DNA of 64,000 nucleotides from an uncultured Bdellovibrionales bacterium (GTDB lineage: Bacteria > Patescibacteriota > Minisyncoccia > Moranbacterales > DUUL01), in NCBI GenBank assembly GCA_964421125.1, contig CAYQVD010000005.1:867-64866 (forward strand). The letters are read 5' to 3'. Every line of letters begins with the position of its first letter. The stretch's first letter is position 1. Positions 3,559 through 58,312 of the stretch are shown piece by piece. Both the position numbers and the translations under genes were made by a program. The notes beneath the pieces were generated by a model. That model was given only the letters and a program-made list of their open reading frames with translations, searched no databases and was not told where the DNA came from.

Positions 3559-4890
3559 TCAGTCAAGCTCCTTTTTTTCAATATTATTCTCCACAAACTC
3601 TTTTTGCTTCTTTTTCTTTTCCAACCGACCCATACTAATCACTTTTTTTGAATTAAAATCTGAAAATTTCTCTAATTCCTTATCCAAATCACAAACAGCT
3701 GGATTAACTTCCAGTGCTGTCTTATTGATGCCGAGAAGTTTTATCCCGTCTAGCGAACGTACTCGAGAAAGAGCCACATAGCCCATTCCATATTCAAATG
3801 ACTTACTCAGGTCCATTTCCACTGCATCCAAGGTCATCCCCTGACTTTTGTGCACAGTGATTGCCCAAGCCAGCCTGAGTGGAACTTGCGTCACCGATGC
3901 CAGTATTTCACCATCTTCATCAATAGACCATTTTTCTGGAACCGCTGTGATTATTTTGCCTTTAATGGTTTTCACAATCGGCAATCCCTCTTTTTCAAAA
4001 CCAACAACACTCCCAAGTGTGCCGTTCACAAAACCTTTCTCAAAATTATTTTTCACAAACATCACTACCGCTCCTTTTTTAAGCACCAGCGTTTCCGGAG
4101 CAAGACAACCTCTTTTTATTGTGTTGACTAAGTTAGCTATTCCAGTAGAAGTCATTTGGAATGTTTTTGGCTCTTCTTCTATTTTTCCCAATTCAAAATT
4201 ATTTATTTCATCCGCATTAGCATTATGAGTGAAGAGCTTGGTTGGGGTAATTTTGCTTTTAATGTTTTTATTTTCTCTGGAAAGAATAAGTCCTGATGTC
4301 TCTGTGTCACAAGTTCTGCTTCTGATGTCACTAAGAATTTTCAACATTTGACCTTCTTCTTGGCGATGCTGTTCTTCAAGATAGCAAGTCGTGGGATTCA
4401 TTTCTTGCCAAACTCTGGATTCATTCACAAAGCGAGCTTTGGTTCCATATCTTGCCACTGGTGGTAATTGAAAAAAATCTCCGCAAAGAATTACCTGCAA
4501 ACCGCCAAAAGGCAGGAACGGGTCTTTGAATCTTTTGCAGATGCTATCAACAATGTCTAGCTGATGAGCATGAAGCATCGAAACTTCATCTATTATCAAT
4601 ACTCTAGTTTTTTTAATTTTTCGACTATAGAAACCTCTCTTTTTAAGTTTAGAAAAATCCGCTTCAGTAAAAACGTCTCTGATTCCCATTCCCGACCAAC
4701 TGTGAATAGTTTGCCCGTTCATATGAGTCGAAGCAATCCCAGTGGAAGCTGTGACGGCTACTCCTATTTTTTTATTTTTAAGATATTTAATGTATTGATT
4801 TAGAAGATATGTCTTTCCGCTTCCCGCAGGACCTGTCAAAAAAACGTTATGCCCCAATTTCAAAATATCCAAAGCTGTCGATTGTTTCAT
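3559..4890 (-). CDS. Pif1-family (RecD-like SF1B) ATP-dependent DNA helicase
   Basis: Walker A LTGPAGSGKT, motif Ia VTASTGIAS, Walker B IIDEVSM, and the Pif1 signature ILCGDFFQLPPV are all present. Confidence 0.75.
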   Translation of the reverse strand: MKQSTALDILKLGHNVFLTGPAGSGKTYLLNQYIKYLKNKKIGVAVTASTGIASTHMNGQTIHSWSGMGIRDVFTEADFSKLKKRGFYSRKIKKTRVLIIDEVSMLHAHQLDIVDSICKRFKDPFLPFGGLQVILCGDFFQLPPVARYGTKARFVNESRVWQEMNPTTCYLEEQHRQEEGQMLKILSDIRSRTCDTETSGLILSRENKNIKSKITPTKLFTHNANADEINNFELGKIEEEPKTFQMTSTGIANLVNTIKRGCLAPETLVLKKGAVVMFVKNNFEKGFVNGTLGSVVGFEKEGLPIVKTIKGKIITAVPEKWSIDEDGEILASVTQVPLRLAWAITVHKSQGMTLDAVEMDLSKSFEYGMGYVALSRVRSLDGIKLLGINKTALEVNPAVCDLDKELEKFSDFNSKKVISMGRLEKKKKQKEFVENNIEKKELD

Positions 4891-10839: not shown

Positions 10840-12330
10840 ATGCTAAAAATTACAAAAGAAAATGAATACAAGCAAGTGGTTAATCCAACTGGAAAGCAAA
10901 AAGCCCCAGTAGTTTTTCATGTGTCAGATGAGCTAATGCCTAATGAATCCACTATTGAAAAACTTGTTAAAGTTGCATCAAATGAACATATCTTTCATCA
11001 TACTGCTGCCCTAGCTGATGTTCATCAAAAACCAGGAAGAAAGAATCCTTCTGGAACAGTAGTTGCCACAGAAAAATATTTTCTACCACAGCTCCTTGAT
11101 ACTGCTCCAAACTGCGGAATGAGATTAATTAAAACTCCTTTCAGTGAAGAAGATTTAAATAAAAAGCAAATCGATGAAATGTTCAAAAAATTTGTTGAAG
11201 TCGTGCCAACTAAAAAATATATTGGTAACTACATTCCATTAAAAACAGTTTTAGATATTTGCCAACGTGGGTCATCTGCAGTTCTTGAACATTTAGGCAA
11301 AGACGCTTCTGACGCAGAAAACATGCTAATGAATGGAAATATGTTTGAAGATGAGAAAATTAGTAAGAAAGATCTCTATACTGCCCTCCCACCAATGTTT
11401 TATCGCTTTGGGCAATTCCGACTTGGAATTCTTGGAGCTGCTGGAAATCACTTTCTAGATTTAATGAAAATTACTGACATTCTTGATGAATCAATGGCTA
11501 AAAAATTTGGAGTCAAAAAAGGTCAATATGTTTTTTTAGTTCATACTGGATCGGGACTAATTGGTCAATATGCAAGTTATTTTTATACTCCCAAAAGAAA
11601 AGAACATTTGAGTCAAAAAATAATTTCGGGACTTGGAAGAATATCATTTCTTGGAAACAAAAAAGATTGGCACAAAAAATTAAAAACGGACCTTCCCATC
11701 TACAAAGACAAAGATGAATTTTATGCCATTGATAGTCAATCAGAATTAGGAAAAAATTACTATACTGCCCACAGAGCTGCCGGAAATTTTGGCTTTGCCA
11801 ATCGAGACTTCATTCAACACAACATGGAAAAAGCGATTAAGAAGGTTATCGGAAAAGAAAACGTTCTCGAATTACTCTATGACATGTCTCATGTTTACGT
11901 AAATAAAGAGAACCACTATGGAAAGGATGTTTTAGTTCATCGTTCAAACACCACTCGAGCCTTTGGCCCTTCCAAAATGCAAGGGACAAAATTCGCCGAA
12001 ACTGGAGAGCCAATTTTCATGCCATCTTCAATGAGCACCTCTGCTTATTTTGGAGTAGCTACTGAAGAAAACGAGTCAACTTTCCGATCAGCTGCTCACG
12101 GAACCGGAAAAGCAAAAGAGAAAACTTCCAATGTTCCTCAAAATAAAGAAGAATTATTCAAGAAAATGGAAGAGCGCAATGTAAAACTTTATAATGCCGC
12201 ATCAAAAGAAGTAATCAATCAAGACGCCTCCAACTACAAAGATCCTGATAAGGCCCTTGCTGGTATGGAAGCCAATAAAATAATTAAAACAGTGGCAAAA
12301 ATGCAACCAGTAGCAGTTTTAATGTATTAA
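10840..12330 (+). CDS. rtcB: RtcB-family RNA 3'-phosphate ligase
   Basis: ALADVHQKPGRKNPSGTVVAT...TAPNCGMRL corresponds to the RtcB PDVHxGxG...GxDIGCGM metal site. HTGSGLIG and AAHGTGK motifs are also present. Confidence 0.7.
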   Translation: MLKITKENEYKQVVNPTGKQKAPVVFHVSDELMPNESTIEKLVKVASNEHIFHHTAALADVHQKPGRKNPSGTVVATEKYFLPQLLDTAPNCGMRLIKTPFSEEDLNKKQIDEMFKKFVEVVPTKKYIGNYIPLKTVLDICQRGSSAVLEHLGKDASDAENMLMNGNMFEDEKISKKDLYTALPPMFYRFGQFRLGILGAAGNHFLDLMKITDILDESMAKKFGVKKGQYVFLVHTGSGLIGQYASYFYTPKRKEHLSQKIISGLGRISFLGNKKDWHKKLKTDLPIYKDKDEFYAIDSQSELGKNYYTAHRAAGNFGFANRDFIQHNMEKAIKKVIGKENVLELLYDMSHVYVNKENHYGKDVLVHRSNTTRAFGPSKMQGTKFAETGEPIFMPSSMSTSAYFGVATEENESTFRSAAHGTGKAKEKTSNVPQNKEELFKKMEERNVKLYNAASKEVINQDASNYKDPDKALAGMEANKIIKTVAKMQPVAVLMY

Positions 12331-47269: not shown

Positions 47270-47701
47270 ATGAAAAAAGGAATTGATTATACTGGAATAT
47301 CAGTTTGTTATTTTTGTCATGACGGCAAGGGAGAATTCGTAATGATGAAAAGGGGCAAAAATTGTCGAGATGAAAATGACACTTGGGACACTGGGGGTGG
47401 AGCACTTGAATTTGGTGACAGTGTAATTAAAACTTTAAAAAAAGAAATCAAAGAAGAATTTTGTGCTGATGTAAAAGAACATGAATTTCTTGGCTATCAA
47501 GATGTTCATCGAGAACATGCTGGACAAAAAACTCATTGGCTCTCCCTTAACTTCAAGGTTCTAGTCGAAAAAAATCAAGTTAAAAATGGAGAACCACACA
47601 AGTTTGATGAAGTAAAATGGTTCACACTTGAGAATCTTCATGATAATCTTCACTCTTTTCTCCCAACTTTCTTTAAAAAATATAAAGAAAAATTGAGCTA
47701 A
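47270..47701 (+). CDS. NUDIX hydrolase
   Basis: Nudix box GGGALEFGDSVIKTLKKEIKEEF (GX5EX7REUXEEXGU-like). Confidence 0.6.
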   Translation: MKKGIDYTGISVCYFCHDGKGEFVMMKRGKNCRDENDTWDTGGGALEFGDSVIKTLKKEIKEEFCADVKEHEFLGYQDVHREHAGQKTHWLSLNFKVLVEKNQVKNGEPHKFDEVKWFTLENLHDNLHSFLPTFFKKYKEKLS

Positions 47702-47741
47702 CAAAGCTCAATTTTTTTATAGAAATGAAATCAATATTTTA

Positions 47742-50276
47742 CTATTTATCATCCTTCAATTCTTCATTTCCTGAATTTTTTAAATCATCAAGACTTTTTG
47801 CACCTCCAAAAGAATTATATCTTTCAAGAATTTCCTGTTCAACAACCTCTTTGCTTCGTCCATACTTATATCTAGAAAGTTCTTTATAAGCCTCTCTTAA
47901 TTCCGCACTACCTTCTGTCGGCTTATAGGTCTTCATATCAAAAGCATTGGATGATTCATTATTAATCAAGAGCTTTGAGAAGCATTGATAGTTATCAACA
48001 TTGATTAGGTCATTCGCATCAAAAACTGGTGCGAATTGTTTTTCTAGAAAATCTGCATCCTCCGGACCAACTCGGAAAGAACAAATTGAACCAACATTTC
48101 CAAAAACCGCCTTAGAAATATCTTCAGAAAGTTGTCCAATAAATTGATGAGCAACTGTCAGACAAAGACGATATTTTCTTGCTTCAGAAAGAATCTGAGA
48201 AATTGAATCAGTAGTAAAATTTTGAAACTCATCAATATAAAGATAGAAATCTTTTCGCTTATCTTCATCCATATCTCCCCGAGAAAGAGCTGCCATCAAA
48301 AGCTTTCCAACAATAATCATTCCAAGTAAATGACTATTAATTTCTCCAAGCTTACCTTTTGAAAGATTCACAAGAAGAATTTTTCCATCATCCATTAATT
48401 CCCTAAAATCAATTGTACTTTTCTGTTGAGAAATAATCGGCCTCATCATGTCATTAGAAATGAAAGTAGCAAGTTTTGAATTAATGTATGGAGCAATATT
48501 TTCAAGCGCAGCATCCCCTCCGGCGTTCTCTGCTTCCTTTTCCCAAAATTCAACTACGGTAAAGTCTTTGCATCTTTTTAATTTCTCTTTCCGAAATTCA
48601 GGATCACGGAAGATTCTTGGAATTTCCAGAAGAGTCGATCCAATCTCAGGGCTATCAAGCACTAACAAAAGAGCGTTTCTCATGTACTGCTCAAACATTG
48701 GACCACCGGTTTGCTTAAGATCATAAAGCTTATCAAAAATCGCAATCAATTCATTGATTACAAAAGTTTTTTGTTCTGGACGACTTTCGTCATATTCAAT
48801 CAAATTAAAGCCAAAAGGTCTTTCTATATCAGAAGGATTAAAATAGATAATATCTTCAGCTCTCTCTTTCGGAATGCATTCCAGGACATGATCAATAAGA
48901 TCACCATGGGGATCAATGATGCACATTCCTTCTTTTTGGGCATCTTGTTTTGCCATTTCCTCAATGAAAGTTGATTTACCAGTTCCAGTTTGTCCAACCA
49001 TATAGAGATGTCTTCTTCGATCATTCTTTCCTATTTTTATTTCCGTTTCAGTTCCACGATAATCACTATAGCCAATTAATAATCCTTCTTTAGGAACACT
49101 GGCTGGCGGAGGAGCAGTTTTTGATTTAAGTAAATTAATCTTTGGTGTCTCAGTTGTCGAAATTGGAAAATGGAAGATACTAGCAATCTCCTCAATACCA
49201 AGATTAATACTTTTTGATAAATTAAAGTTTCTTAAAATATAGTGATAAGCAAGCTTATGAGCATTTCCAGATTTATCCCTAACTGCTATAAATTTATTCA
49301 AATTTGAATCTTCAAACTGAACAAAACAATTCTCAATTTGAGCCAAGATCATCTCTGCTCGCTCCTGTGTTTCAGCAGAAGCTAGAAGTCGAATGTTGAC
49401 ATCAAATTGTGCTTTATTAGCCTTAGCTTCTATTTGTTTAATTACTTCATTTTCCTCTGGAGTAAGATTCACAACCTCATCATCGTCTTTTTTAAATCCC
49501 TCATCTTCTTTTTTCGATAAAGTATTCAACATCTCTTTTCCAATGCCTTTTGCAATGTCCCCTGCAACGCTTGTGTCGGCATTATCAAGTCTTTTCCCTT
49601 GTTGCATTTTTTGCGAAATTTTCTCACCCTTAATTTTCCCCTTCTTATCTCCCTTCCTTAAGACTAATTGAATTGCCGCTCCTTCACTTTCGTTCTCAAG
49701 TTTTGAAAGTGCATTAGCAATACTATGCAAAGGATCAGTTTCGAGTTGCTGATAAGTTCTTACTGGATAAGCACTTTTCTTTTTAAGATTCAAGAAACTC
49801 CCTGCCGTACATGCCCCTGGACTAAAAATTGTGTAATCCTTCACTTGCTCAATATGGGCATCGGGATAAAAACTATGAATTTGTTTTTCAACCAATTCTC
49901 GAATTATTGATGGCATTGAAATATAGAAAGAAATTTGCTCCCCATTTGAAGGAACTGCCATCTCGAAAGTTATTTGTGGTGAACCATAAAGAGTCCGGGC
50001 AATAAAATTACGTCTATTATGAATATCCGAAAGTGTCGTCAATAAATGTTCCATTATTGCAATCTCTTCTTTTTCTAATTGACTCTTCTGTTCCTTGTCT
50101 TGAACCCCATCAGCCTTATGAGACTTAATGACTCGAATAATATCCAAAGACGCATTCAAGGAGTTTGTGAGTTGAATTCTAAAAAGTAATAGCACCTCCA
50201 CCAAAATCCACACTCCACTAAAGAGCATGATAATTCCGCTAATAAAAAATAGTACTAAAAGTATAATCTCTAACAT
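47742..50276 (-). CDS. Membrane-anchored P-loop ATPase of the TraG/VirD4/VirB4/HerA superfamily (type IV secretion/coupling-protein-like)
   Basis: 844 aa with an N-terminal ~30-aa hydrophobic anchor. Walker A HLYMVGQTGTGKST, Walker B YLYIDEFQNF, and a Q-rich CLTVAHQFIGQL motif as in T4SS coupling/VirB4 ATPases. It is the last gene of a four-gene minus-strand unit. Confidence 0.5.
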   Translation of the reverse strand: MLEIILLVLFFISGIIMLFSGVWILVEVLLLFRIQLTNSLNASLDIIRVIKSHKADGVQDKEQKSQLEKEEIAIMEHLLTTLSDIHNRRNFIARTLYGSPQITFEMAVPSNGEQISFYISMPSIIRELVEKQIHSFYPDAHIEQVKDYTIFSPGACTAGSFLNLKKKSAYPVRTYQQLETDPLHSIANALSKLENESEGAAIQLVLRKGDKKGKIKGEKISQKMQQGKRLDNADTSVAGDIAKGIGKEMLNTLSKKEDEGFKKDDDEVVNLTPEENEVIKQIEAKANKAQFDVNIRLLASAETQERAEMILAQIENCFVQFEDSNLNKFIAVRDKSGNAHKLAYHYILRNFNLSKSINLGIEEIASIFHFPISTTETPKINLLKSKTAPPPASVPKEGLLIGYSDYRGTETEIKIGKNDRRRHLYMVGQTGTGKSTFIEEMAKQDAQKEGMCIIDPHGDLIDHVLECIPKERAEDIIYFNPSDIERPFGFNLIEYDESRPEQKTFVINELIAIFDKLYDLKQTGGPMFEQYMRNALLLVLDSPEIGSTLLEIPRIFRDPEFRKEKLKRCKDFTVVEFWEKEAENAGGDAALENIAPYINSKLATFISNDMMRPIISQQKSTIDFRELMDDGKILLVNLSKGKLGEINSHLLGMIIVGKLLMAALSRGDMDEDKRKDFYLYIDEFQNFTTDSISQILSEARKYRLCLTVAHQFIGQLSEDISKAVFGNVGSICSFRVGPEDADFLEKQFAPVFDANDLINVDNYQCFSKLLINNESSNAFDMKTYKPTEGSAELREAYKELSRYKYGRSKEVVEQEILERYNSFGGAKSLDDLKNSGNEELKDDK

Positions 50277-50434
50277 TTTTATTTATTTTTATTTTCTATT
50301 ACTATTAAACTAGAAATTAAATGTTTGAGTGCAGTTCGAGGCAAAAATGAGCATTTGAGTAAAGCTGTATCAAATATACAGCGAACGAAAAGCGCAGTTT
50401 TTAACAAAGAAATGTGCCAAACATAAAATTTCTA

Positions 50435-50896
50435 CTAAAATTCCTTTAGTAATCCTTTTTCAATCAATGCTTTTCGGGTTTCATCTTCAACTAACTTATC
50501 ATGCACTTGATCAAGAACATAATTCTCATCCAAATGTCTCGCAACCTTAATTGCAGTATAAGGATCTTTTTGAATAGCTAATTTTACAAGCTTATCTATT
50601 TGCTGTTCAATGTCTTTTGTCTCAGCAATATCCTTTGCATGATTTTTAATTTCTCTATAATCATCGTCAGAAGAATCATCATCGTCGTCATTTCCTGATC
50701 CGCCTTTCTGTTGAATAGCTTCCATGACCTCCTTTTTCTTTTCTTGATCATTTTCTGATGAAGAAATCTTCTCTAGGCTATCTTCTTTTTTTAAACCTTC
50801 TTTATCTTTGTCCACTCCTAATTCAGAAACAGACTCAATGCCTCCCAATTCACTCCCTTCCAGTTTTTTCTCAATTGTCTTATCTTGATCTGCCAT
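50435..50896 (-). CDS. Hypothetical acidic protein
   Basis: 153 aa with a DDDDDSSDDD tract and a C-terminal helical domain. Its start codon at 50894-50896 lies immediately upstream of the adjacent ORF's stop at 50898-50900, so the two are tightly linked. Confidence 0.4.
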   Translation of the reverse strand: MADQDKTIEKKLEGSELGGIESVSELGVDKDKEGLKKEDSLEKISSSENDQEKKKEVMEAIQQKGGSGNDDDDDSSDDDYREIKNHAKDIAETKDIEQQIDKLVKLAIQKDPYTAIKVARHLDENYVLDQVHDKLVEDETRKALIEKGLLKEF

Positions 50897-50897
50897 A

Positions 50898-51239
50898 TTA
50901 TTTTTTTTCTAAGTTATTATTTTCATCCTCCTCATCTTCCTCATCTAACTGAGTTAATTCCTCCGCCTGCTCAAGCATAATTTTATCAAGCTCATCACCA
51001 GACTCTTTTTCAAGTTGATCTATCTCTTTAAATCCTTTTTCAATATCTTTCACTGATTCATTAAATTCAGATTCAACCTCCTCTGCTTTTCCCAATAACT
51101 CAGATCCAGTTTCTTTTATTTCACTATTTATTTTTTTTACTTTTTCAGTTAAAATCTCAATTTGTTCATCTATTTCATTCTCATTGATATTTTCATCAAT
51201 TTCTTTTTCTTCGTTATTGTCATTTGAATTTTGATTCAT
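50898..51239 (-). CDS. Hypothetical highly acidic coiled-coil protein
   Basis: 113 aa, more than 35% Glu/Asp, with a heptad-like pattern. Confidence 0.4.
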   Translation of the reverse strand: MNQNSNDNNEEKEIDENINENEIDEQIEILTEKVKKINSEIKETGSELLGKAEEVESEFNESVKDIEKGFKEIDQLEKESGDELDKIMLEQAEELTQLDEEDEEDENNNLEKK

Positions 51240-51258
51240 ATATTTTTAAGTTTATTAA

Positions 51259-54200
51259 TTATCTCTTCCAAGATTTCAATTTTCCTCTGAAATCTAATCC
51301 TTTTTTCTTATAATAATCCTCAAGATTTTTCATAAAAGACTTTCTGGTCATACCTGTATCACTTTTCAACTTAGTTATCTTTAAAAATTCCCTTGAGTTA
51401 ACAATAAATTCCCGTCCTATATCTTTGCCCTCGCTAGAATCTTTGGCAATTTTTTTATTAATCGTCTCTATGAACTGAGATACTGAAGCTGTATCTTTTC
51501 TTTCGGCTGAATTTTCAACTGAATTAGCTTCAGGACTCACATGACTTTGCATATTCTCCCTAGTCTTAAAATCACTCTTTCGTTCTTTTCTTCCAGTATC
51601 AACCCTCAAAGGACGATCCTCCTTGATGCTAATAAATTCATCCCTCTTATCTCGATAAGGATTTGCCTTTTTATTGACTCTTTTGATTTCCTTATCTACC
51701 TCCTTTAGTTTTTTATCAATCACTAATTGATTCTTTTCCATTTCCTTGAGACTATCTTTTATCATTTTATCTATACCTTTTATTGAACTCTCTTTTCTTA
51801 TTTTTCTATCAGAATCACCTGTAAGCCTCATAGCTTCTATGATGCTCTTTTTTGTTAACTCCAATTCTTCAATTTCCTTCTTTTTTTCATCATGCTTAGA
51901 CTTCAAGTCTTTCTCAATTGATTCAATTTCTTCTCTGCGTGACTTTAGTCCAGCCAACTCGTTCTCAATTGGATTGAGCTTTATTTCATAGCCATTAATT
52001 AATTTATCAGCAACTGCATCTCTTCTGTTAGAATGTTTAGCAATTATATTATCCCGATATTCAATTTTAGTTTGAATTTTATTTTTTTCATTATCCAACT
52101 TAGCATTCCTCTTGTCATAATCTTTTATTTTCAACATTAAAGATTCTCCGCCAGGAGCCCCTAATTGTTTTAATTTTTCAATAGTCCTTTTCATTTCTTC
52201 CTTAACTTTTTCATTAACAGCTTTCTTTCTATCAAAATTATCAGATTCTTTCTTAAGTTTGGCAAGTTCTTTTTCATTGTCTCTCATCCAAACCTGATTC
52301 CAACCAGCTCGAAATTTGCCAACAATCCTTCCTGCATCAGGAAATTTGCTTTTAACAAAATCCCAAGAATCACCAACGAGATCCTTAGCCTTGTCAGACA
52401 TCCTTTCCCAAATTCCTCTATTCTCCATACTTAACATTTCAAAACTCAATTTTGGCTCTTCTTTTTCTAGTTCAGAATAATCAATAAGAACCTCTGAACT
52501 AGATTCCCCTTCCTCTATTTTATTTTCCCCTTTTTCTTCTTCTAAGTCTGATAATTCAACTAGATCATCAATTCCCTCTTGATTTAAATTTTGTGAATCA
52601 ACAGTGTCATTGTTCTCATTTTCTATTTTTTCTACATCTGATATTAAATCTTCGCCTCTGTTCGGATCGTCCATTTTTAATTGATTCTTTTTTCGATTTT
52701 TTTCAAATTCATCATCTTTTAAGTTGCCCACTGCAACTCCACCCATATCTCTTCCTTGATTTTGGATTTGAGATTGACTTACTTTATCAGTAGCATTATC
52801 ATTATCATCTTCCTCAATTCCATCTTCATCTTGATCATTAAACATCTTTTGATGTCGTTTTTCCACATCCTCAAAACTATTAATATTAATTTTTTCCATT
52901 ATATTTTTTAAAGTATTATTATTTGAATTAAATTTAAAATTTTTAATTGTTTTTTCAAATTTTGAAAGAGATATTGATTCTTTCGTGACCTCAGGATTTT
53001 TGAACTTAATAATTTTATCTCCTCTTTCTTCTTGAGTTCGAGTTACCTCAACAATAACATGCCCTTCTCCTTCAGAAAGATAATCAATAACTTTTATTTT
53101 TTTGTTACTTTTTTTATCAACAAAAACAAGTTCTTTTTCGTCATCTACAAATTTATACCATTCAAAAAATTCTTTTATATTTTCAGGCATCTTAAAAAAC
53201 TTTTTTTCATCTTCAATTTCAAGTGCTGGTTCATATAGTTTTTCAAAATCACGAAACGACACTCTTCTGCCACTATTTTTTTTGCCATTCTTTTTTTCAA
53301 GAAAAACAGCTCCTTCACCTAAATCAAAATATTTAACCAATTCCATAACAATTTTTGATCCTTTCTTAACAAATCTATCACCATAATTATATTTTTCTTC
53401 AAATTCTTCTTGATCAGGCACATTAAGACCTTCTTGTTCTTTTTTCTTTCCATCTTGCACTTTTTCTTCTTGCTTATCTTCTTTTTTCTTAGAAGAAAAC
53501 CTCACTTCTTTCCCTGAATTTACTTTCACAAAACCATCATATTGATAATTTTTCATAAGGTCCTCAAATTCTGAATAATCCAACCACTTATACTTCAATT
53601 CATCAAATTTAACTTTTCCTAAATTATGTTGTTTATTGCCGTCATCTCCCATTTTCAAATCAAAACCTGGAGAAGTTGCAATTCTCACCCGACCATTTTT
53701 TTCATTATACTTCTCAATCAATACCACTTCTCCATTTTGATGAGACAAAAATTCTGGTTTTCGATTCTTGAATATTTTATATTTTTCACTGAATTCCTTG
53801 AAAGTTGGCCATTTCGTATTATTTTCTTTTTCAGTTTTATTTTTAATAATTTCCTCTCCTGGATTTTTGTTAACATTTTTTTCTTTTATGCCAAAATAAG
53901 AAGAAGATATTTTTATTTCATTTTTACTTTTAATTAGAATTTCTCTGAGAACTTTAGGAATTGTTTCTTGCTTATCAATCAATTTCCAAAGTTCTTCTTG
54001 GTATTTTGTTTCACTCCAATCTTCTTGAGTGGCTATTGCATTCCCAAGTTTTTCAGATTCTCTTTTAATAACTTCTTCGGCTTTTTTATATCTTTTAGAA
54101 TATTCTTTAAGAATCTCCTTATTAAAAACAAGATTAGCAATATCATCTGGGCTTAAAGCAAACTCTTCTTTATCTTCTAATTTTTGCTCATCTTGTTTTA

Positions 54201-54327
54201 ATGTTTTTTTCTGTTCTTTTTTTTCACTGCCATTTTTGCCATTTTCAACAACCTTTTCTATATCAGAAAGATTATTCCTTAAAACTTCACTTAAATTTCC
54301 TCTTTTTGGCTCTTTTTGTTCTCCCAT
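51259..54327 (-). CDS. Giant Lys/Glu-rich low-complexity protein with internal repeated small beta-like modules and a long C-terminal coiled coil
   Basis: 1022 aa with no TM or signal peptide. Repeated blocks (GEVVLIEKYNEKNGRVRI.., GSKIVMELVKYFDLGEGAVFLEK.., GHVIVEVTRTQEERGDKIIKF..) and a coiled coil over roughly residues 650-900. It is the first gene of the unit that ends with the T4SS-like ATPase. Confidence 0.5.
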   Translation of the reverse strand: MGEQKEPKRGNLSEVLRNNLSDIEKVVENGKNGSEKKEQKKTLKQDEQKLEDKEEFALSPDDIANLVFNKEILKEYSKRYKKAEEVIKRESEKLGNAIATQEDWSETKYQEELWKLIDKQETIPKVLREILIKSKNEIKISSSYFGIKEKNVNKNPGEEIIKNKTEKENNTKWPTFKEFSEKYKIFKNRKPEFLSHQNGEVVLIEKYNEKNGRVRIATSPGFDLKMGDDGNKQHNLGKVKFDELKYKWLDYSEFEDLMKNYQYDGFVKVNSGKEVRFSSKKKEDKQEEKVQDGKKKEQEGLNVPDQEEFEEKYNYGDRFVKKGSKIVMELVKYFDLGEGAVFLEKKNGKKNSGRRVSFRDFEKLYEPALEIEDEKKFFKMPENIKEFFEWYKFVDDEKELVFVDKKSNKKIKVIDYLSEGEGHVIVEVTRTQEERGDKIIKFKNPEVTKESISLSKFEKTIKNFKFNSNNNTLKNIMEKININSFEDVEKRHQKMFNDQDEDGIEEDDNDNATDKVSQSQIQNQGRDMGGVAVGNLKDDEFEKNRKKNQLKMDDPNRGEDLISDVEKIENENNDTVDSQNLNQEGIDDLVELSDLEEEKGENKIEEGESSSEVLIDYSELEKEEPKLSFEMLSMENRGIWERMSDKAKDLVGDSWDFVKSKFPDAGRIVGKFRAGWNQVWMRDNEKELAKLKKESDNFDRKKAVNEKVKEEMKRTIEKLKQLGAPGGESLMLKIKDYDKRNAKLDNEKNKIQTKIEYRDNIIAKHSNRRDAVADKLINGYEIKLNPIENELAGLKSRREEIESIEKDLKSKHDEKKKEIEELELTKKSIIEAMRLTGDSDRKIRKESSIKGIDKMIKDSLKEMEKNQLVIDKKLKEVDKEIKRVNKKANPYRDKRDEFISIKEDRPLRVDTGRKERKSDFKTRENMQSHVSPEANSVENSAERKDTASVSQFIETINKKIAKDSSEGKDIGREFIVNSREFLKITKLKSDTGMTRKSFMKNLEDYYKKKGLDFRGKLKSWKR

Positions 54328-54580
54328 TTTATTTTCTTTTAAAAAAGTTTTTGTATTTTAATATTATACCACATCTTCATTTTACCAACAAATTTTTGTT
54401 TTACATAAATCAATAAAAATATTATAATAATAACACTATGAAGATTGAGAAATGATTATTTTTGAACATGGGAAAACTCACCTACAAAAATACAAAAGAT
54501 TGAAGTTTTACTTAGTGAAAAAATAATTATTTCTTAATCTCGAAAATACCAGAAAGGTAAAATAATATATAAAACAAAAA

Positions 54581-56224
54581 ATGAAAAAGGTAATCAATTT
54601 TATAAAAGAAGAATGGATTTTTATTATTATTCTCTTGGCAGTTTTTACTGCGGGTGGACTCCTACGATTTTGGCAATTAGACACGATTCCTCCAGGATTA
54701 CAATATGATGAAGCCTATAATGGCACCGATGCCATCAAAGCCCTAGAAAATGGAAAGTTTGAAATATTTTATCCTGATAATAATGGACGGGAAGGACTCT
54801 ACATCAATGTTATTGCTGTATTTTTCAATACTTTTGGTATTAATATGGTAGTCCTTCGAGCTGTTAGTGCTGTATTTGGACTCTTTGCTCTTTTTGGATT
54901 TGCACTGCTCGTTAAAGAACTAAAACTTTCACGCCTTTCAATGCTCCTAGGAATTTTCATGATGTCTTTCTCATTTTGGGCAATTAATTTTTCAAGAACT
55001 GCTTATCGAGGAATTATGGTTCCATTCTTGATTGTTTGGATATTTTATTTTTTCTATCTTGGCCTTCGGAGAAAAAATGGCTGGTTCATTGCTCTCTCTG
55101 GTCTTCTAACCGGAATTGGATTTCATACCTATATCTCATTTCGAGTTGTGCCATTGATTTTTTTTATTGTAGTTTTAGGAGGAATTATTTTTGAAAAAGG
55201 ATACATTAAAACCTACTGGAAAAAAGCTTTGATTTTCATCTTCGCTACAGTTATCACTCTTGCGCCAATTTTAATCTATTTCTATCAGCATCAAAGTGAT
55301 CTCATTGGTCGAAGCAATGCTGTTTCAGTTTTCAATTCTCCCGACATGAGCCTTCCAACAGCTCTTGGTAAAAGCCTTGCTTATCACGTTGGAGCATTTT
55401 TTATCCACGGAGACCCAAATCAAAGACATAACCACGGTGCACTTCCCTTACTTCCTGCCACTTGGTCAATTCTCTTTGGACTAGGATTAGTAATCAGTAT
55501 TAAAGAAATAATCGTAAATATTATCCAGCGAATAAAGAAAAAGAAGAAGTATAAACCAAGCCGACTACTTCAAGTTTCAATTTTCGCTCAAGCCTGTTTT
55601 TGGACAATGCTAATACCAGGAGTTTTGAGTATCGAAGGAATTCCACACGCTCTTCGAATTATTGGTGCAATTCCAGCCGTCTTCCTGATCGCTGTTTTGC
55701 CATTTGAATATGCAATAAATCTATATGAAAAAATCAGGAAATCAAAAAATTTGAAATTAAAACCTTGGCGATGGAATGTTTTACGAGGATCTTTGATTGG
55801 ATTAGTTATTTTAGTTTTAATAAGCGGAGGATTACAAGCCTATTTATATTTCGGAGTTTGGGCAAAAGATAATAAAACATTTGATTCCTTTGAAAGGAAA
55901 CTTTATGACCTAGGACTCGCAATTAAACAACAAGAACCAAAGGAAAATAACTTCATTATTGTTCCAGACCCAATCTATATTAGTGAGAACAAAAGAGATT
56001 CAAGTTATAAAACATCGGAACTTGTCGCCTATCCAGAATACAAGAGTTTTTTCTTTTGGCACCCGCTAGATGCGATCAGACATTCAACTTGTGAAAACGC
56101 TCTCTATGTTTTTGCTGAATCAGATGAATGGCTAATTGAAAGTTTCAAGATAAAATGTCCTGAACTTGAAGCACAGAAAGTAAAACCAGAAGGCGGTATT
56201 TATAATTTTTGGATACTTAGATAA
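54581..56224 (+). CDS. GT-C glycosyltransferase of the ArnT/PMT (GT39/GT83) type
   Basis: 547 aa polytopic protein. A DExY-type motif LQYDEAYNG sits in the first extracytoplasmic loop. Confidence 0.6.
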   Translation: MKKVINFIKEEWIFIIILLAVFTAGGLLRFWQLDTIPPGLQYDEAYNGTDAIKALENGKFEIFYPDNNGREGLYINVIAVFFNTFGINMVVLRAVSAVFGLFALFGFALLVKELKLSRLSMLLGIFMMSFSFWAINFSRTAYRGIMVPFLIVWIFYFFYLGLRRKNGWFIALSGLLTGIGFHTYISFRVVPLIFFIVVLGGIIFEKGYIKTYWKKALIFIFATVITLAPILIYFYQHQSDLIGRSNAVSVFNSPDMSLPTALGKSLAYHVGAFFIHGDPNQRHNHGALPLLPATWSILFGLGLVISIKEIIVNIIQRIKKKKKYKPSRLLQVSIFAQACFWTMLIPGVLSIEGIPHALRIIGAIPAVFLIAVLPFEYAINLYEKIRKSKNLKLKPWRWNVLRGSLIGLVILVLISGGLQAYLYFGVWAKDNKTFDSFERKLYDLGLAIKQQEPKENNFIIVPDPIYISENKRDSSYKTSELVAYPEYKSFFFWHPLDAIRHSTCENALYVFAESDEWLIESFKIKCPELEAQKVKPEGGIYNFWILR

Positions 56225-56246: not shown

Positions 56247-56689
56247 AAATTACAAATTCCAAATAAATTACAATGACTAAAAATCAAAATTCAAAACAAT
56301 ATGATTTGGAAGATAGAACCTTGGAGTACGGAAAAAGGATAATTAGAATGTCGAAGGAATTACCTAAAAATACAGTAAATTTTAAATTAATTGATCAAGT
56401 CGTTCGTTCTGGCACCTCAATGGGAGCAAACTATAGAGAGGCTAATGAAACAGAAACGAAAAAAGATTTTCGTTATCGCATAAGAATTTGTAGAAAAGAA
56501 GGCAAGGAGACTATTTATTGGTTAAATTTAATAATAGAAGCTAATCCTGAATTTGAAGACAGAATTAAAAATTTATTGCAAGAAACTACAGAGTTAGTAA
56601 AAATATTTGCTACAATTCTAGTAAAGTGCAAGTAGGTGTTTTGAAAATTAGAATTTAATATTTTTAATTTATTTGGAATTTGTAATTTT
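56247..56689 (+). mobile_element. IVS-like cassette: a four-helix-bundle gene bounded by perfect 24-bp inverted repeats
   Basis: IR-L AAAATTACAAATTCCAAATAAATT (56247-56269) equals the reverse complement of IR-R AATTTATTTGGAATTTGTAATTTT (56666-56689). A 14-bp tandem duplication GAATTTGTAATTTT follows IR-R. This is the same architecture as 23S rRNA intervening sequences, but here it lies between protein-coding genes. Confidence 0.6.
56273..56635 (+). CDS. Four-helix-bundle protein (PF05635 / 23S rRNA intervening-sequence protein; DGR Avd family)
   Basis: 120 aa. LIDQVVRSGTSMGANYREANETETKKDFRYRIRICRKEGKETIYWLNLI matches the family core (LxDQLxRAxxSIxxNIAEG...DF...IAxxSxxEx). Confidence 0.75.
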   Translation: MTKNQNSKQYDLEDRTLEYGKRIIRMSKELPKNTVNFKLIDQVVRSGTSMGANYREANETETKKDFRYRIRICRKEGKETIYWLNLIIEANPEFEDRIKNLLQETTELVKIFATILVKCK

Positions 56690-56776: not shown

Positions 56777-58312
56777 CTATTTAATCTTGCAAATTTGATA
56801 ATCCTCAAACTCTGCGACTTTTTCTAGTTCTGCGATTTCCCAATTGCAATCTCGATCAACTACAATCGAACTCTCTTTGTATTCCATCAATTCAGCTTCA
56901 TCTTCTATCCTGTTTTCATTCCCAACCACAACCCAACCTGAAAAATCTTCCATTGGATTAGCCTTGTTGTAATATCTCACCTTATCTTTTCCAAAGTAAT
57001 ATCTGGCTGATGTATATTCAAAAGGATTAGATGTAATTATATATTCCTTCTGAAATAAACCTTTCTCATAAGCCTTAAAGAACTGACTCCAACCCGTTTG
57101 ATACGTAATCTGATTTAAACCAAGTAATAATAAAGCATAAATAAATAACGTTATAAGCCAAGCCCATTTTTTCTTAAAAACTTCCGTAATAAGTCCCGCT
57201 CCAAGAAGATAAAACAAAACAGCTGATGGCATAAAATACCTTGAAACATAAAGCTTGATGTTCACATAGGAAAGTAGTATCAAAAAAGCCAATGTTCCAA
57301 TAGAGATCAAGGATAGAACTAGGAACTCCTTTCGTTTCTGATTTTTCTTCCAAGCAACCACAAATAAAACTGTTAATAATATCAAGACTAACAATCCAAC
57401 AGAAGACCCATTAAAAATTGATGACTTGTTAATAGCTAAGTCAGCAAATGAATTTGCTTCTGGAACTCCGCCTGTTCCTGGCAAATGTCCGAAAAGAAAT
57501 ATCTGCAATGTACTTGGGATATCACTTAAATATGAAACATCAATCCAACCCAAATTTCCTTTCAACATGTGCGTGATGAAGATTTTTATCCAACTCAAGA
57601 AAAATAAGGCAATCACTCCCACTCCAATCCAAAACCCCTTATCTCCGAAAAGAACAGCTCCTTTATTTTTTGCTTTTTTCGTAAAAGGAATATTAAATAT
57701 TTCTTTTTTATTAAAATTCTTTTGATACAAAACATACGCTACATAAAACATTACGAAGAAAAACAAGGAGAGATAGTGAGTCAAAAAGGCTAACCCTCCA
57801 AAAACTCCCCACAAAACCCAGTCTTTAATTTTATTTTTCTGAAGCGCCCGATAGAAAAACCAAACTGCCCACAACAACAAGAACCCAAACAAGCTATACA
57901 TTCGAGCTTCTTGTGAATATTGAATTGCAAATGGAGAAAACGTCGCAATAATAGCAGCTAACATTCCTGCTCTCTTATTAAACATTTTCCACCCAATCCA
58001 AAATAAAGAAATTACCGTCAAAACACCAAAAACAATAGAAAGGGATCGAATCCCAGCAGGAGAATAGTCAAACATAGCACTCCATGGCTTGGCTATCCAA
58101 TAATGAAGAGGTGGATGAACATCATCAAAAATCATTTGATTCATTTCAGGAAGAGGTTGCTTCAAAAGAATCCCGGTGAAAGCTTCGTCATACCAAAAAT
58201 CTCGATCTTCCAATACCGGAGAAAACCGAATTAACACAGCTAAAATAACAACCAAAATTGGTAGAACCCAGAAAAGATTCTTGATTATCTTTGTTTTCGT
58301 TTGTTTTTTCAT
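56777..58312 (-). CDS. GT-C glycosyltransferase of the ArnT/PMT (GT39/GT83) type, second paralog
   Basis: 511 aa polytopic protein. DExY-type motif FWYDEAFTG in the first loop. Confidence 0.6.
   Translation of the reverse strand: MKKQTKTKIIKNLFWVLPILVVILAVLIRFSPVLEDRDFWYDEAFTGILLKQPLPEMNQMIFDDVHPPLHYWIAKPWSAMFDYSPAGIRSLSIVFGVLTVISLFWIGWKMFNKRAGMLAAIIATFSPFAIQYSQEARMYSLFGFLLLWAVWFFYRALQKNKIKDWVLWGVFGGLAFLTHYLSLFFFVMFYVAYVLYQKNFNKKEIFNIPFTKKAKNKGAVLFGDKGFWIGVGVIALFFLSWIKIFITHMLKGNLGWIDVSYLSDIPSTLQIFLFGHLPGTGGVPEANSFADLAINKSSIFNGSSVGLLVLILLTVLFVVAWKKNQKRKEFLVLSLISIGTLAFLILLSYVNIKLYVSRYFMPSAVLFYLLGAGLITEVFKKKWAWLITLFIYALLLLGLNQITYQTGWSQFFKAYEKGLFQKEYIITSNPFEYTSARYYFGKDKVRYYNKANPMEDFSGWVVVGNENRIEDEAELMEYKESSIVVDRDCNWEIAELEKVAEFEDYQICKIK

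Follow-up and report, generated by a model that had tools for sequence, protein, structure and literature searches.

Two separately conserved gene pairs at the locus of a predicted orphan coupling-protein-type ATPase in Patescibacteria

What is an ATPase of the coupling-protein type doing on the chromosome of a small-genome bacterium, and do the genes that accompany it belong to the same system? This question is raised by a locus within a stretch of 64,000 nucleotides (nt), hereafter the window (contig CAYQVD010000005.1 of assembly GCA_964421125.1), which is deposited under the name of an uncultured Bdellovibrionales bacterium, is classified within the Moranbacterales and represents ordinary chromosome of a low-GC (~33%) Patescibacterium. 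Four genes lie there on the minus strand and encode, in the order of transcription, a protein of 1022 amino acids (aa) that we call the giant (51259..54327), two small proteins of 113 and 153 aa (p113, 50898..51239, and p153, 50435..50896) and an ATPase of 844 aa (47742..50276). A preliminary description had regarded them as one co-directional, tightly spaced unit, in which the giant was inferred to be the substrate or scaffold of the ATPase. The list of open reading frames (ORFs) bears out the orientation and the spacing, with 19 nt between the giant and p113, a single nucleotide between p113 and p153, and 158 nt between p153 and the ATPase. The unit is, however, not co-conserved as a whole: the four genes are two separately conserved pairs standing side by side, the giant with p113 and p153 with the ATPase, and the two pairs rarely adjoin elsewhere.

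Based on profiles, PDB sequences and folds, residues ~401-790 of the ATPase (47907..49076, minus strand, as for all features of the locus unless stated) are predicted to form a P-loop translocase domain with a helical insertion (~500-606), and this domain is, judged by its sequence, of the VirD4/TraD/TrwB coupling-protein type and not FtsK-like. The Pfam family TrwB_AAD_bind (PF10412) matches with 37 bits against a cut-off of 20.5 and DUF87 with 28.6 against 23.2, while TraG-D_C is borderline (21.8 against 22); among NCBIfam models the best match is 'VirD4-like, CD1115 family' (residues 412-735), followed by TraD models and CedD. All NCBIfam equivalog models score far under their cut-offs (36.5 against 250 bits), and coupling-protein membership is therefore assigned at the superfamily or family level only. 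Searching the PDB with a 40-homologue profile returned TrwB as the best sequence relative (3e-7), then DotL and HerA, and no FtsK chain occurred among the sequence or the fold matches. FtsK_SpoIIIE gave no Pfam match at E ≤ 1, and NCBIfam only a marginal EccCb (E 0.12). The earlier assignment of the ATPase to the VirD4/TraG/VirB4/HerA translocation class is thus upheld, and no grouping with FtsK/SpoIIIE or a housekeeping family emerged. The motifs picked out at that stage are correctly placed, with Walker A GQTGTGKS at residues 428-435 (48972..48995), Walker B DEFQNF at residues 682-687 (48216..48233) and AHQFIGQL at residue 709. All three show little or no variation across 40 homologues (55-85% identity), the invariant positions being G428, Q429, T430, G431, G433, K434 and S435 in Walker A and D682, E683, F684, Q685 and N686 in Walker B. 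In the AlphaFold2 model, residues 500-606 form an uninterrupted helical stretch between the two Walker motifs, in a region of moderate model confidence. We also considered an identity as HerA (HerA-NurA or defence) and rejected it, as the HerA equivalog scored 15 against 800 bits and no nuclease gene is a neighbour, although DUF87 is above its cut-off.

The N-terminal half of the ATPase points to a different family. Its first 35 residues (50172..50276) are hydrophobic (Kyte-Doolittle 19-residue mean 2.84; modelled helix 2-42), in agreement with the membrane anchor proposed before, and because basic residues follow (R33, R48, K51), the rest of the protein would be cytoplasmic. Residues 36-400 (49077..50171) form a predicted alpha/beta domain, assigned to DUF8128 (PF26449) in the precomputed annotation, whose fold resembles the N-domain of VirB4 according to AlphaFold2 and Foldseek. 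When modelled alone, it reached a predicted local distance difference test (pLDDT) value of 77.9 and a predicted template modelling score (pTM) of 0.78, and the top 14 Foldseek matches in the PDB were all TrwK/VirB4 chains (E 2e-6 to 2e-4, template modelling score on the query (TMq) 0.40-0.45), representing one independent solved protein, TrwK, with the next match at only E 1e-2. Among the predicted viral structures of BFVD, the domain matched gp156 (E 4e-18) and gp155 (1e-7) of phage G, and also phages JL and Slash. The best PDB folds for the full-length model were again TrwK/VirB4, collinear over ~850-910 columns, and were followed by Cagbeta, DotL and HerA, which align only to the C-terminal half. 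No VirB4 signature (CagE_TrbE_VirB, AAA_10) matched the ATPase in Pfam or NCBIfam at E ≤ 1. Sequence profiles and N-domain fold together suggest an architecture of membrane anchor, VirB4-like N-domain and coupling-protein-type motor. The ATPase is thus like VirD4/TraD/TrwB proteins in its N-terminal anchor and its TrwB_AAD_bind and borderline TraG-D_C signatures, with a modelled helical insertion that may correspond to theirs, and like VirB4 (TrwK of R388; PDB 7o42, 7o43, 8rtd) in its size (~800 aa), two-domain layout and N-domain fold (E 2e-6, TMq ~0.44), but unlike VirB4 it has neither the VirB4 sequence signature nor VirB3, VirB6 or VirB8 neighbours, and its C-terminal domain is nearer to the coupling proteins.

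A word-indexed search returned 3,718 homologues of the ATPase, and its loci are present in at least 589 GTDB species (one genome per species scanned), all of them Patescibacteria, and it is a chromosomal gene of these small-genome bacteria; the sources label the homologues Moranbacteria, Parcubacteria or Patescibacteria. Identity in the family ranges from 45 to 87%, and the best 80 of the at least 589 species loci (45-68%) come from Moran-, Uhr-, Falkow-, Magasanik-, Sung-, Yanofsky-, Komeili- and Kerfeldbacteria and from Paceibacterota. Many records of metagenome-assembled genomes that carry the ATPase are titled 'uncultured Bdellovibrionales', 'Gammaproteobacteria' or 'Micavibrio' (L019, L021, L023, L025, L027, L051, L061 and others); these are probably mislabelled bins, since their ATPases show 45-57% identity and their loci a Moranbacteria-like synteny. 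Elsewhere the ATPase is flanked by housekeeping genes that vary from locus to locus, and no relaxase or mating-pair-formation genes were found in the ±10 kb flanks of the relatives. Within the 64-kb window, we likewise found no relaxase, integrase, phage, competence, oriT-type accessory or pilin genes, and no VirB3/VirB6/VirB8 or other type IV secretion system (T4SS) genes. We therefore describe the ATPase as 'coupling-protein type, orphan' and not as part of a recognisable conjugation system.

It fits in this respect the orphan VirD4-like type IV coupling protein (T4CP) homologues of Patescibacteria (Quinonero-Coronel et al. 2025, PMC12102498), whose NCBI naming it shares. The passages of that survey on T4CPs report 5,713 VirD4-type homologues in 2,918 genomes, just 148 of them near virB4, and suggest that exaptation of the orphans for other functions cannot be excluded. 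A 639-aa paralogue was observed in one locus (L122:9916-11835), starting at the P-loop, devoid of anchor and DUF8128 and 40% identical to the C-terminal half of the window's ATPase, which is consistent with the approximately two coupling-protein homologues per Patescibacteria genome in the literature.

More distant relatives are carried by mobile elements. Plasmid relatives (503 records, from Bacillus, Streptomyces, Clostridium, haloarchaea and Sulfolobus) are full-length, covering residues ~90-820 at 22-27% identity, and phage relatives (53 records, including phage G, SPO1, SP-10 and CP-51) belong to phrog_5156 (E 6e-87). The homologue on the B. subtilis plasmid NZ_OX419568 aligns over residues 94-822 and therefore includes the N-terminal domain; it is directly followed by a replication-relaxation (relaxase-type) gene and, further on, by genes for a 'conjugal transfer protein', a TcpE-family protein and another large ATP-binding protein, and its position is that of the coupling protein in a monoderm conjugation system. 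Unlike the coupling proteins of such monoderm elements, the window ATPase is encoded on the chromosome, is conserved across a phylum-level radiation without linked relaxase or mating-pair genes, and is paired with a private small protein, p153. The phrog_5156 proteins (phage G gp156, SPO1 gp27.4, CP-51, SP-10) are also homologous over their full length (residues ~100-820, 22-24% identity), N-domain included, but they come from large lytic Firmicutes phages in which nothing like p153, p113 or the C-terminal module of the giant is annotated beside them. In Bacillus phage G (L093, JN638751.1 85006-99159), the gene upstream of gp156 is gp155, which is annotated 'VirB-like' and has the same N-domain fold; full-length homologues are present as gp27.4 in SPO1 (L094, FJ230960.1) and likewise in SP-10, CP-51 and JL.

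What, then, accompanies this motor? The two small proteins were rightly noticed as very acidic, with isoelectric points (pI) of 4.60 for p153 and 4.05 for p113 and aspartate plus glutamate contents of 27% and 36%. In the family alignment, the N-terminal half of p153 is acidic and varies between members, and it is followed by a conserved, probably helical C-terminal domain (residues ~84-153, 50438..50647; KDPYxAIKVARHLDxNYVLDxVHD) with invariant columns from A87 to L150, and this domain has no match in Pfam, NCBIfam or the PDB. A hidden Markov model (HMM) of the p153 family found a homologue in 59 of the 92 loci first fetched. Among the 74 species loci with at least 700 nt upstream of the ATPase, p153 is encoded directly upstream in 49; a different protein of ~160 aa takes the same position in 21, and neither is present in 4. 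This alternative protein, with a disordered N-terminus and the motif IPGVNKFFLEQEAKIKTD, is found in more distant lineages (e.g. L047:196-726, L063:7402-7896), and in several of these loci the next gene upstream encodes cysteinyl-tRNA synthetase. The association of p153 with the ATPase becomes physical in two metagenome contigs (Ga0209542_10034933 and Ga0209343_10075387; L102:3724-6456 and L120:2614-2958), where a p153-like domain is fused in frame to the N-domain of an ATPase 44% identical to the window's, replacing the membrane anchor; a third locus, L060, whose sequence contains masked bases, possibly holds a similar fusion. The fusion argues for direct contact of p153 and the ATPase. We conclude that p153 is a dedicated partner of the ATPase and that the pair is the conserved core of the locus.

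The second pair is built around the giant. As described earlier, this protein is highly charged and free of transmembrane segments (lysine plus glutamate 30%, pI 7.5, maximum hydropathy 0.94, no hydrophobic segment). Of the further features attributed to it, a long coiled coil finds support solely in a crude measure of heptad contrast, whose maximum lies at residues ~750-900, and the repeated small beta-like modules were not recovered, a permissive BLASTP self-comparison giving no significant self-similarity. A word-indexed search with the giant found one relative only, and segment-wise iterative searches within the ATPase-centred loci found L011 and L012 only, while an exhaustive search retrieved 242 cluster representatives, 96 of them at E ≤ 1e-30. 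Beyond P0122 and P0135-P0137, the listed matches cover only residues ~514-1022 and mostly ~625-1012. The giant can accordingly be divided into a C-terminal module, giantC (residues ~625-1012, 51292..52455), recognisable by the motifs IAYNQxW, ANPYRDKR and the C-terminal YYKxKK and without any Pfam or PDB relative, and a lineage-specific N-terminal extension (residues 1-620, 52468..54327) with homologues only in P0122, P0135-P0137 and L011, L012. Most giantC proteins are 420-530 aa long and consist of the module alone; some bear other N- or C-terminal extensions, and those extended at the N-terminus to varying lengths include matches of 844 to 1029 aa. A segment of ~95 residues in the extension of the window giant (residues ~375-470, 52918-53205; FFKMPENIKEFFEWYKF...FEKTIKNF) is absent from the closest relatives, L011 and L012, so the extension gains or loses modules between close relatives. 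Between the window and L012, identity is 85% for the ATPase, 74% for the flanking membrane protein, 65% for p153, 41% for p113 and 35-48% for the giant.

All 47 metagenome loci with at least 330 nt downstream, out of 61 recovered via the giantC alignment, carry a p113-family gene directly after the giantC gene, the median gap being 13 nt, and the other neighbours of the pair differ between loci. p113, whose homologues in L011 and L012 are 41% identical, is thus an obligate downstream partner of the giantC family. The preliminary description had seen no recognisable homology in the partners of the ATPase, which holds for Pfam, NCBIfam and the PDB, but each of them sits in a populated, uncharacterised family. 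A short motif of the alternative ~160-aa protein was also noticed in the giantC family: 13% of the members (P0139, P0143 and others) have IPGV[ND], compared with ~1% of background ORFs, and the window giant carries a degenerate version, KFPDAGR. In a profile comparison between giantC and the alternative ~160-aa protein, only ~15 columns align (probability 13%).

Adjacency of the two pairs is confined to the small clade of the window itself (L011, L012) and to the lineage of L102 and L120; giantC and p113 thus accompany p153 and ATPase sequences in two lineages with ATPases just 44% identical to each other. Viewed from the giantC/p113 pair, a DUF8128 ATPase is near only in L102 and L120, 1.2 kb downstream, and in L122 the motor-domain-only paralogue lies 5.4 kb away, past Mur ligase genes. 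In other Moranbacteria, the slot upstream of p153 is differently occupied. A DUF5663-like protein of ~100 aa is encoded there in 33 loci, and the same slot also holds one or two large proteins (700-1,480 aa) without a Pfam match. These large proteins are dissimilar along most of their sequence and split into many BLAST clusters, of which profile comparison connects the main ones (a 19-member with a 4-member cluster at 98.6% probability, and with a 3-member cluster at 94%, in the latter case at the C-termini). An iterated HMM defined a ~200-residue domain at their extreme C-terminus that is common to 22 loci, short proteins included; a short seed for this motif had stalled at 9 matches, and the longer seed led to the 22 loci. 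The core of the domain reads FG..P..ET...Y..R (L009, L015-L041; e.g. L019:10-2688, L022:10644-12533, L033:3293-7498), and in L022 a second such large protein and a DUF5663 gene lie downstream of the ATPase.

The occupants of the slot are not homologous to each other at the level we could detect. A relationship of giantC to the large proteins of other loci was rejected (hhalign probability ≤0.2%), and p113 gave no match to DUF5663 (PF18908) at E ≤ 1 and an hhalign probability of 0.3% with the DUF5663-like proteins of related loci, so that p113 only occupies the same position as DUF5663. A common origin of p113, DUF5663, the 'IPGVNKFF' family and p153 was also rejected, all hhalign probabilities being under 1%. 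At least two types of cassette, each consisting of a large protein and an acidic, probably helical protein of ~100 aa, hence alternate upstream of the p153-ATPase core.

How could such an arrangement function? We tentatively favour, as a possibility that still falls short of an even chance, a cargo-and-adaptor model in which an orphan coupling-protein motor with a dedicated adaptor, p153, is combined with swappable cassettes of large and small proteins as possible cargo. The ATPase would form a hexamer at the cytoplasmic membrane, and p153 would bind its cytoplasmic N-terminal region as adaptor or regulator. By analogy with known effector systems, the complex would recognise the large proteins encoded next to it, which evolve fast, by their conserved C-terminal modules; the small helical partners would hold these large proteins, and the ATPase would energise their delivery to or across the membrane, alone or by feeding a Patescibacteria T4SS encoded elsewhere. 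The essential T4SS locus of Southlakia epibionticum has been described without recognisable coupling or relaxase proteins (PMC10633639). A bolder form of the model, which we regard as distinctly unlikely, would make this a phylum-wide, undescribed protein-delivery route, in which the orphan ATPase and p153 recognise C-terminal modules and the cargo, escorted by p113 or DUF5663, is exported or handed to the essential T4SS.

The model draws on the class and conservation of the ATPase, the close tie of p153 to it, the constant pairing of giantC with p113, the alternation of two cassette types in one slot, the return of giantC and p113 beside a distantly related ATPase, and the steeper divergence of the giant and p113 than of the ATPase. 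There are also precedents for its separate elements. The XVIPCD, a conserved C-terminal effector domain, binds the all-alpha domain of VirD4 (PMC8740702), and the effectors of the Xanthomonas X-T4SS that bear it are similar to the proteins described here in logic only, being otherwise unrelated large proteins with a common C-terminal domain; the resemblance does not extend to sequence, the C-terminal modules described here exceed the XVIPCD in size (~200 and ~390 residues), each large protein has a partner gene of ~100 aa, and secretion is hypothetical. A small regulator of a coupling protein is exemplified by CagZ on Cagbeta (PDB 8dol, from its title), which p153 and p113 resemble in being small, acidic, helical and encoded beside the motor or its putative substrates. 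They differ from the small partners of coupling-type ATPases in having no detectable homology to them. Other small partners of such motors are IcmS/IcmW for DotL, TraM for TraD and the WXG100/Lap helical partners of the substrates of EssC in the type VII secretion system (T7SS). EssC is, unlike the window ATPase, a multi-domain ATPase of the FtsK type. An identity of p113 or p153 as WXG100 or T7SS small substrates was rejected, as there was no Pfam match at E ≤ 1 and the ATPase is not FtsK-type, which leaves the likeness to WXG100 as an analogy only.

Several observations weigh against the cargo-and-adaptor model. Of the 74 ATPase-centred species loci that extend far enough upstream, not one contains the giantC module, and in most genomes giantC and p113 are distant from the ATPase, so that their adjacency in the window could be neutral. 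Since giantC and the C-terminal domain common to the other large proteins are not related, two modes of recognition would be needed if both were cargo. Neither a signal peptide nor a transmembrane segment is found in the giant, p113 or p153, and export is therefore purely inferred; positive charge at the C-terminus, a common T4SS signal, is not enriched in the large proteins (mean 1.4 compared with 0.7 in the background), the window giant having a charge of +5 over its last 20 residues. The full-length AlphaFold2 model of the ATPase is of moderate confidence (pLDDT 66). Finally, the survey cited above reports, in its part on a genetically tested Patescibacterium, that a distant coupling-protein homologue is non-essential for epibiotic growth in this organism (PMC12102498).

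In a first alternative, the ATPase would be a DNA motor that retains the ancestral activity of coupling proteins, the pumping of DNA across the membrane, and serves uptake, export or chromosome handling at division, with p153 as its regulator and with the giant and p113 as unrelated cytoskeletal or scaffold coiled-coil bystanders. The sequence families nearest to the motor (TraD, TrwB, CedD) are DNA-translocating coupling proteins, the homologue on the Bacillus plasmid adjoins a relaxase, phage homologues carry the annotation DNA helicase or translocase, and giantC and p113 are mostly encoded away from the ATPase; division and cell-wall genes (POTRA_1/FtsQ-like, Mur ligase, FtsA) are also repeatedly found close to the locus, both in the window and in L006. 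Yet relaxase, oriT-type accessory and competence genes are absent within the 64 kb, and relaxases are rare in Patescibacteria in general, with 109 in 103 genomes according to the relevant passages of the survey (PMC12102498). A DNA motor leaves unexplained the alternation of two cassettes of large and ~100-aa proteins in one slot, as well as the recurrence of giantC and p113 beside an ATPase of only 44% identity. We consider this alternative unlikely, although it is the strongest competitor of the cargo-and-adaptor model.

A second alternative takes its cue from the N-domain, and would make the ATPase a second, divergent VirB4-type protein that energises the assembly of a T4SS or pilus encoded elsewhere and does not recruit substrates. 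The N-domain matches only TrwK/VirB4 in the PDB, the full-length model is collinear with TrwK, an anchor is also seen in VirB3-VirB4 fusions, and in phage G the homologue gp156 adjoins the 'VirB-like' gp155 of the same N-domain fold. Against this stand the missing CagE_TrbE_VirB and AAA_10 matches together with a C-terminal domain that fits coupling-protein families, and the fact that VirB3, VirB6, VirB8 and pilin genes were not found nearby. As far as the passages of the survey on VirB4 go, the Patescibacteria VirB4 clade clusters with TrsD/VirB3/VirB6, often near dnaA, and VirB3-VirB4 fusions were not found (PMC12102498). Moreover, the Bacillus plasmid has, besides the homologue of the window ATPase, a separate large 'ATP-binding protein' at the VirB4 position. 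A VirB4-like role is thus improbable. It is very unlikely, lastly, that the locus is what remains of a mobile element, such as a decayed prophage or integrated conjugative element, or that it is an anti-phage module of the HerA type. Full-length relatives on plasmids and in Bacillus phages and weak PADLOC matches to mad8 and HerA models would speak for this, but the PADLOC scores are low and confined to the P-loop core, and the family keeps intact catalytic motifs at 45-87% identity across 589 or more species. The window contains no integrase, relaxase or phage gene and no tRNA next to the locus, and only the Lys/Glu codon bias of the giant departs from an otherwise ordinary base composition.

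A promoter-like site (54363..54391; TTGTTG, 17 nt, TATAAT), read by eye from the sequence, lies ~35 nt upstream of the ATG of the giant; it includes an extended -10-like form (TGgTATAAT, with TG at the extended -10 position), and was not listed by the consensus scan because its -35 hexamer fits at only 3 of 6 positions. At the other end, 26 nt past the stop codon of the ATPase, the consensus scan identified, as no more than a pattern match, a terminator-like hairpin with a T-run (47688..47716; 12-bp stem, AAAAATTGAGCTTTGTTAGCTCAATTTTT). The flanking genes include purine synthesis genes, a NUDIX hydrolase, PMT_2 glycosyltransferases, a POTRA_1 (FtsQ-like) protein, Mur ligases, a sigma-70 factor, RtcB and RuvA. 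An Rfam scan of the window detected two tRNAs and nothing else, and these only two tRNA genes are each more than 10 kb from the locus. Just upstream of the locus, a 120-aa 23S_rRNA_IVP gene (PF05635, precomputed annotation; 56273-56635, plus strand) is situated between a gene for a 547-aa membrane protein without a recorded Pfam match (54581-56224) and a PMT_2 glycosyltransferase gene (56777-58312). Elsewhere in the window, and unrelated to the locus, are genes for a PIF1-type helicase (3559-4890, minus strand, E 9e-39) and the RtcB RNA ligase (10840-12330, plus strand, E 3e-68).

The class of the ATPase and the existence of orphan coupling proteins in Patescibacteria are already published. 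In contrast, the combination of a coupling-protein motor with a DUF8128/VirB4-like N-domain, p153 as a partner gene and as a fused domain, the giantC-p113 pair and the alternation of cassettes appear to be undescribed: a full-text literature search for DUF8128, DUF5663 and the accessions found no paper, and in the passages of the survey that concern T4CPs (PMC12102498) the N-domain, the p153 partner or fusion and the large-protein cassettes go unmentioned. The context in which these observations matter is the dependence of Patescibacteria on host cells. For no T4SS other than theirs has a requirement for growth been reported, and neither substrates of this system nor a role for the approximately two orphan coupling-protein genes per genome have been described (PMC12102498; PMC10633639; PMC12857230).

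The locus described here offers handles on these orphan coupling proteins, namely a defined ATPase subfamily (DUF8128 with a coupling-protein motor), a partner encoded next to it in nearly every case and in some cases fused to it, and two families of large, fast-evolving proteins, with conserved C-terminal modules and small escorts, that alternate in one slot. The same ATPase architecture occurs in Bacillus plasmids and large Bacillus phages, which are tractable model systems. If the large proteins were not cargo, the ATPase-p153 pair would still define a conserved membrane motor. If they were, they would be the first candidate effector set for the epibiotic host interaction of this radiation, and should the wider delivery route hold true, a function would have been found for thousands of orphan coupling proteins in Patescibacteria.

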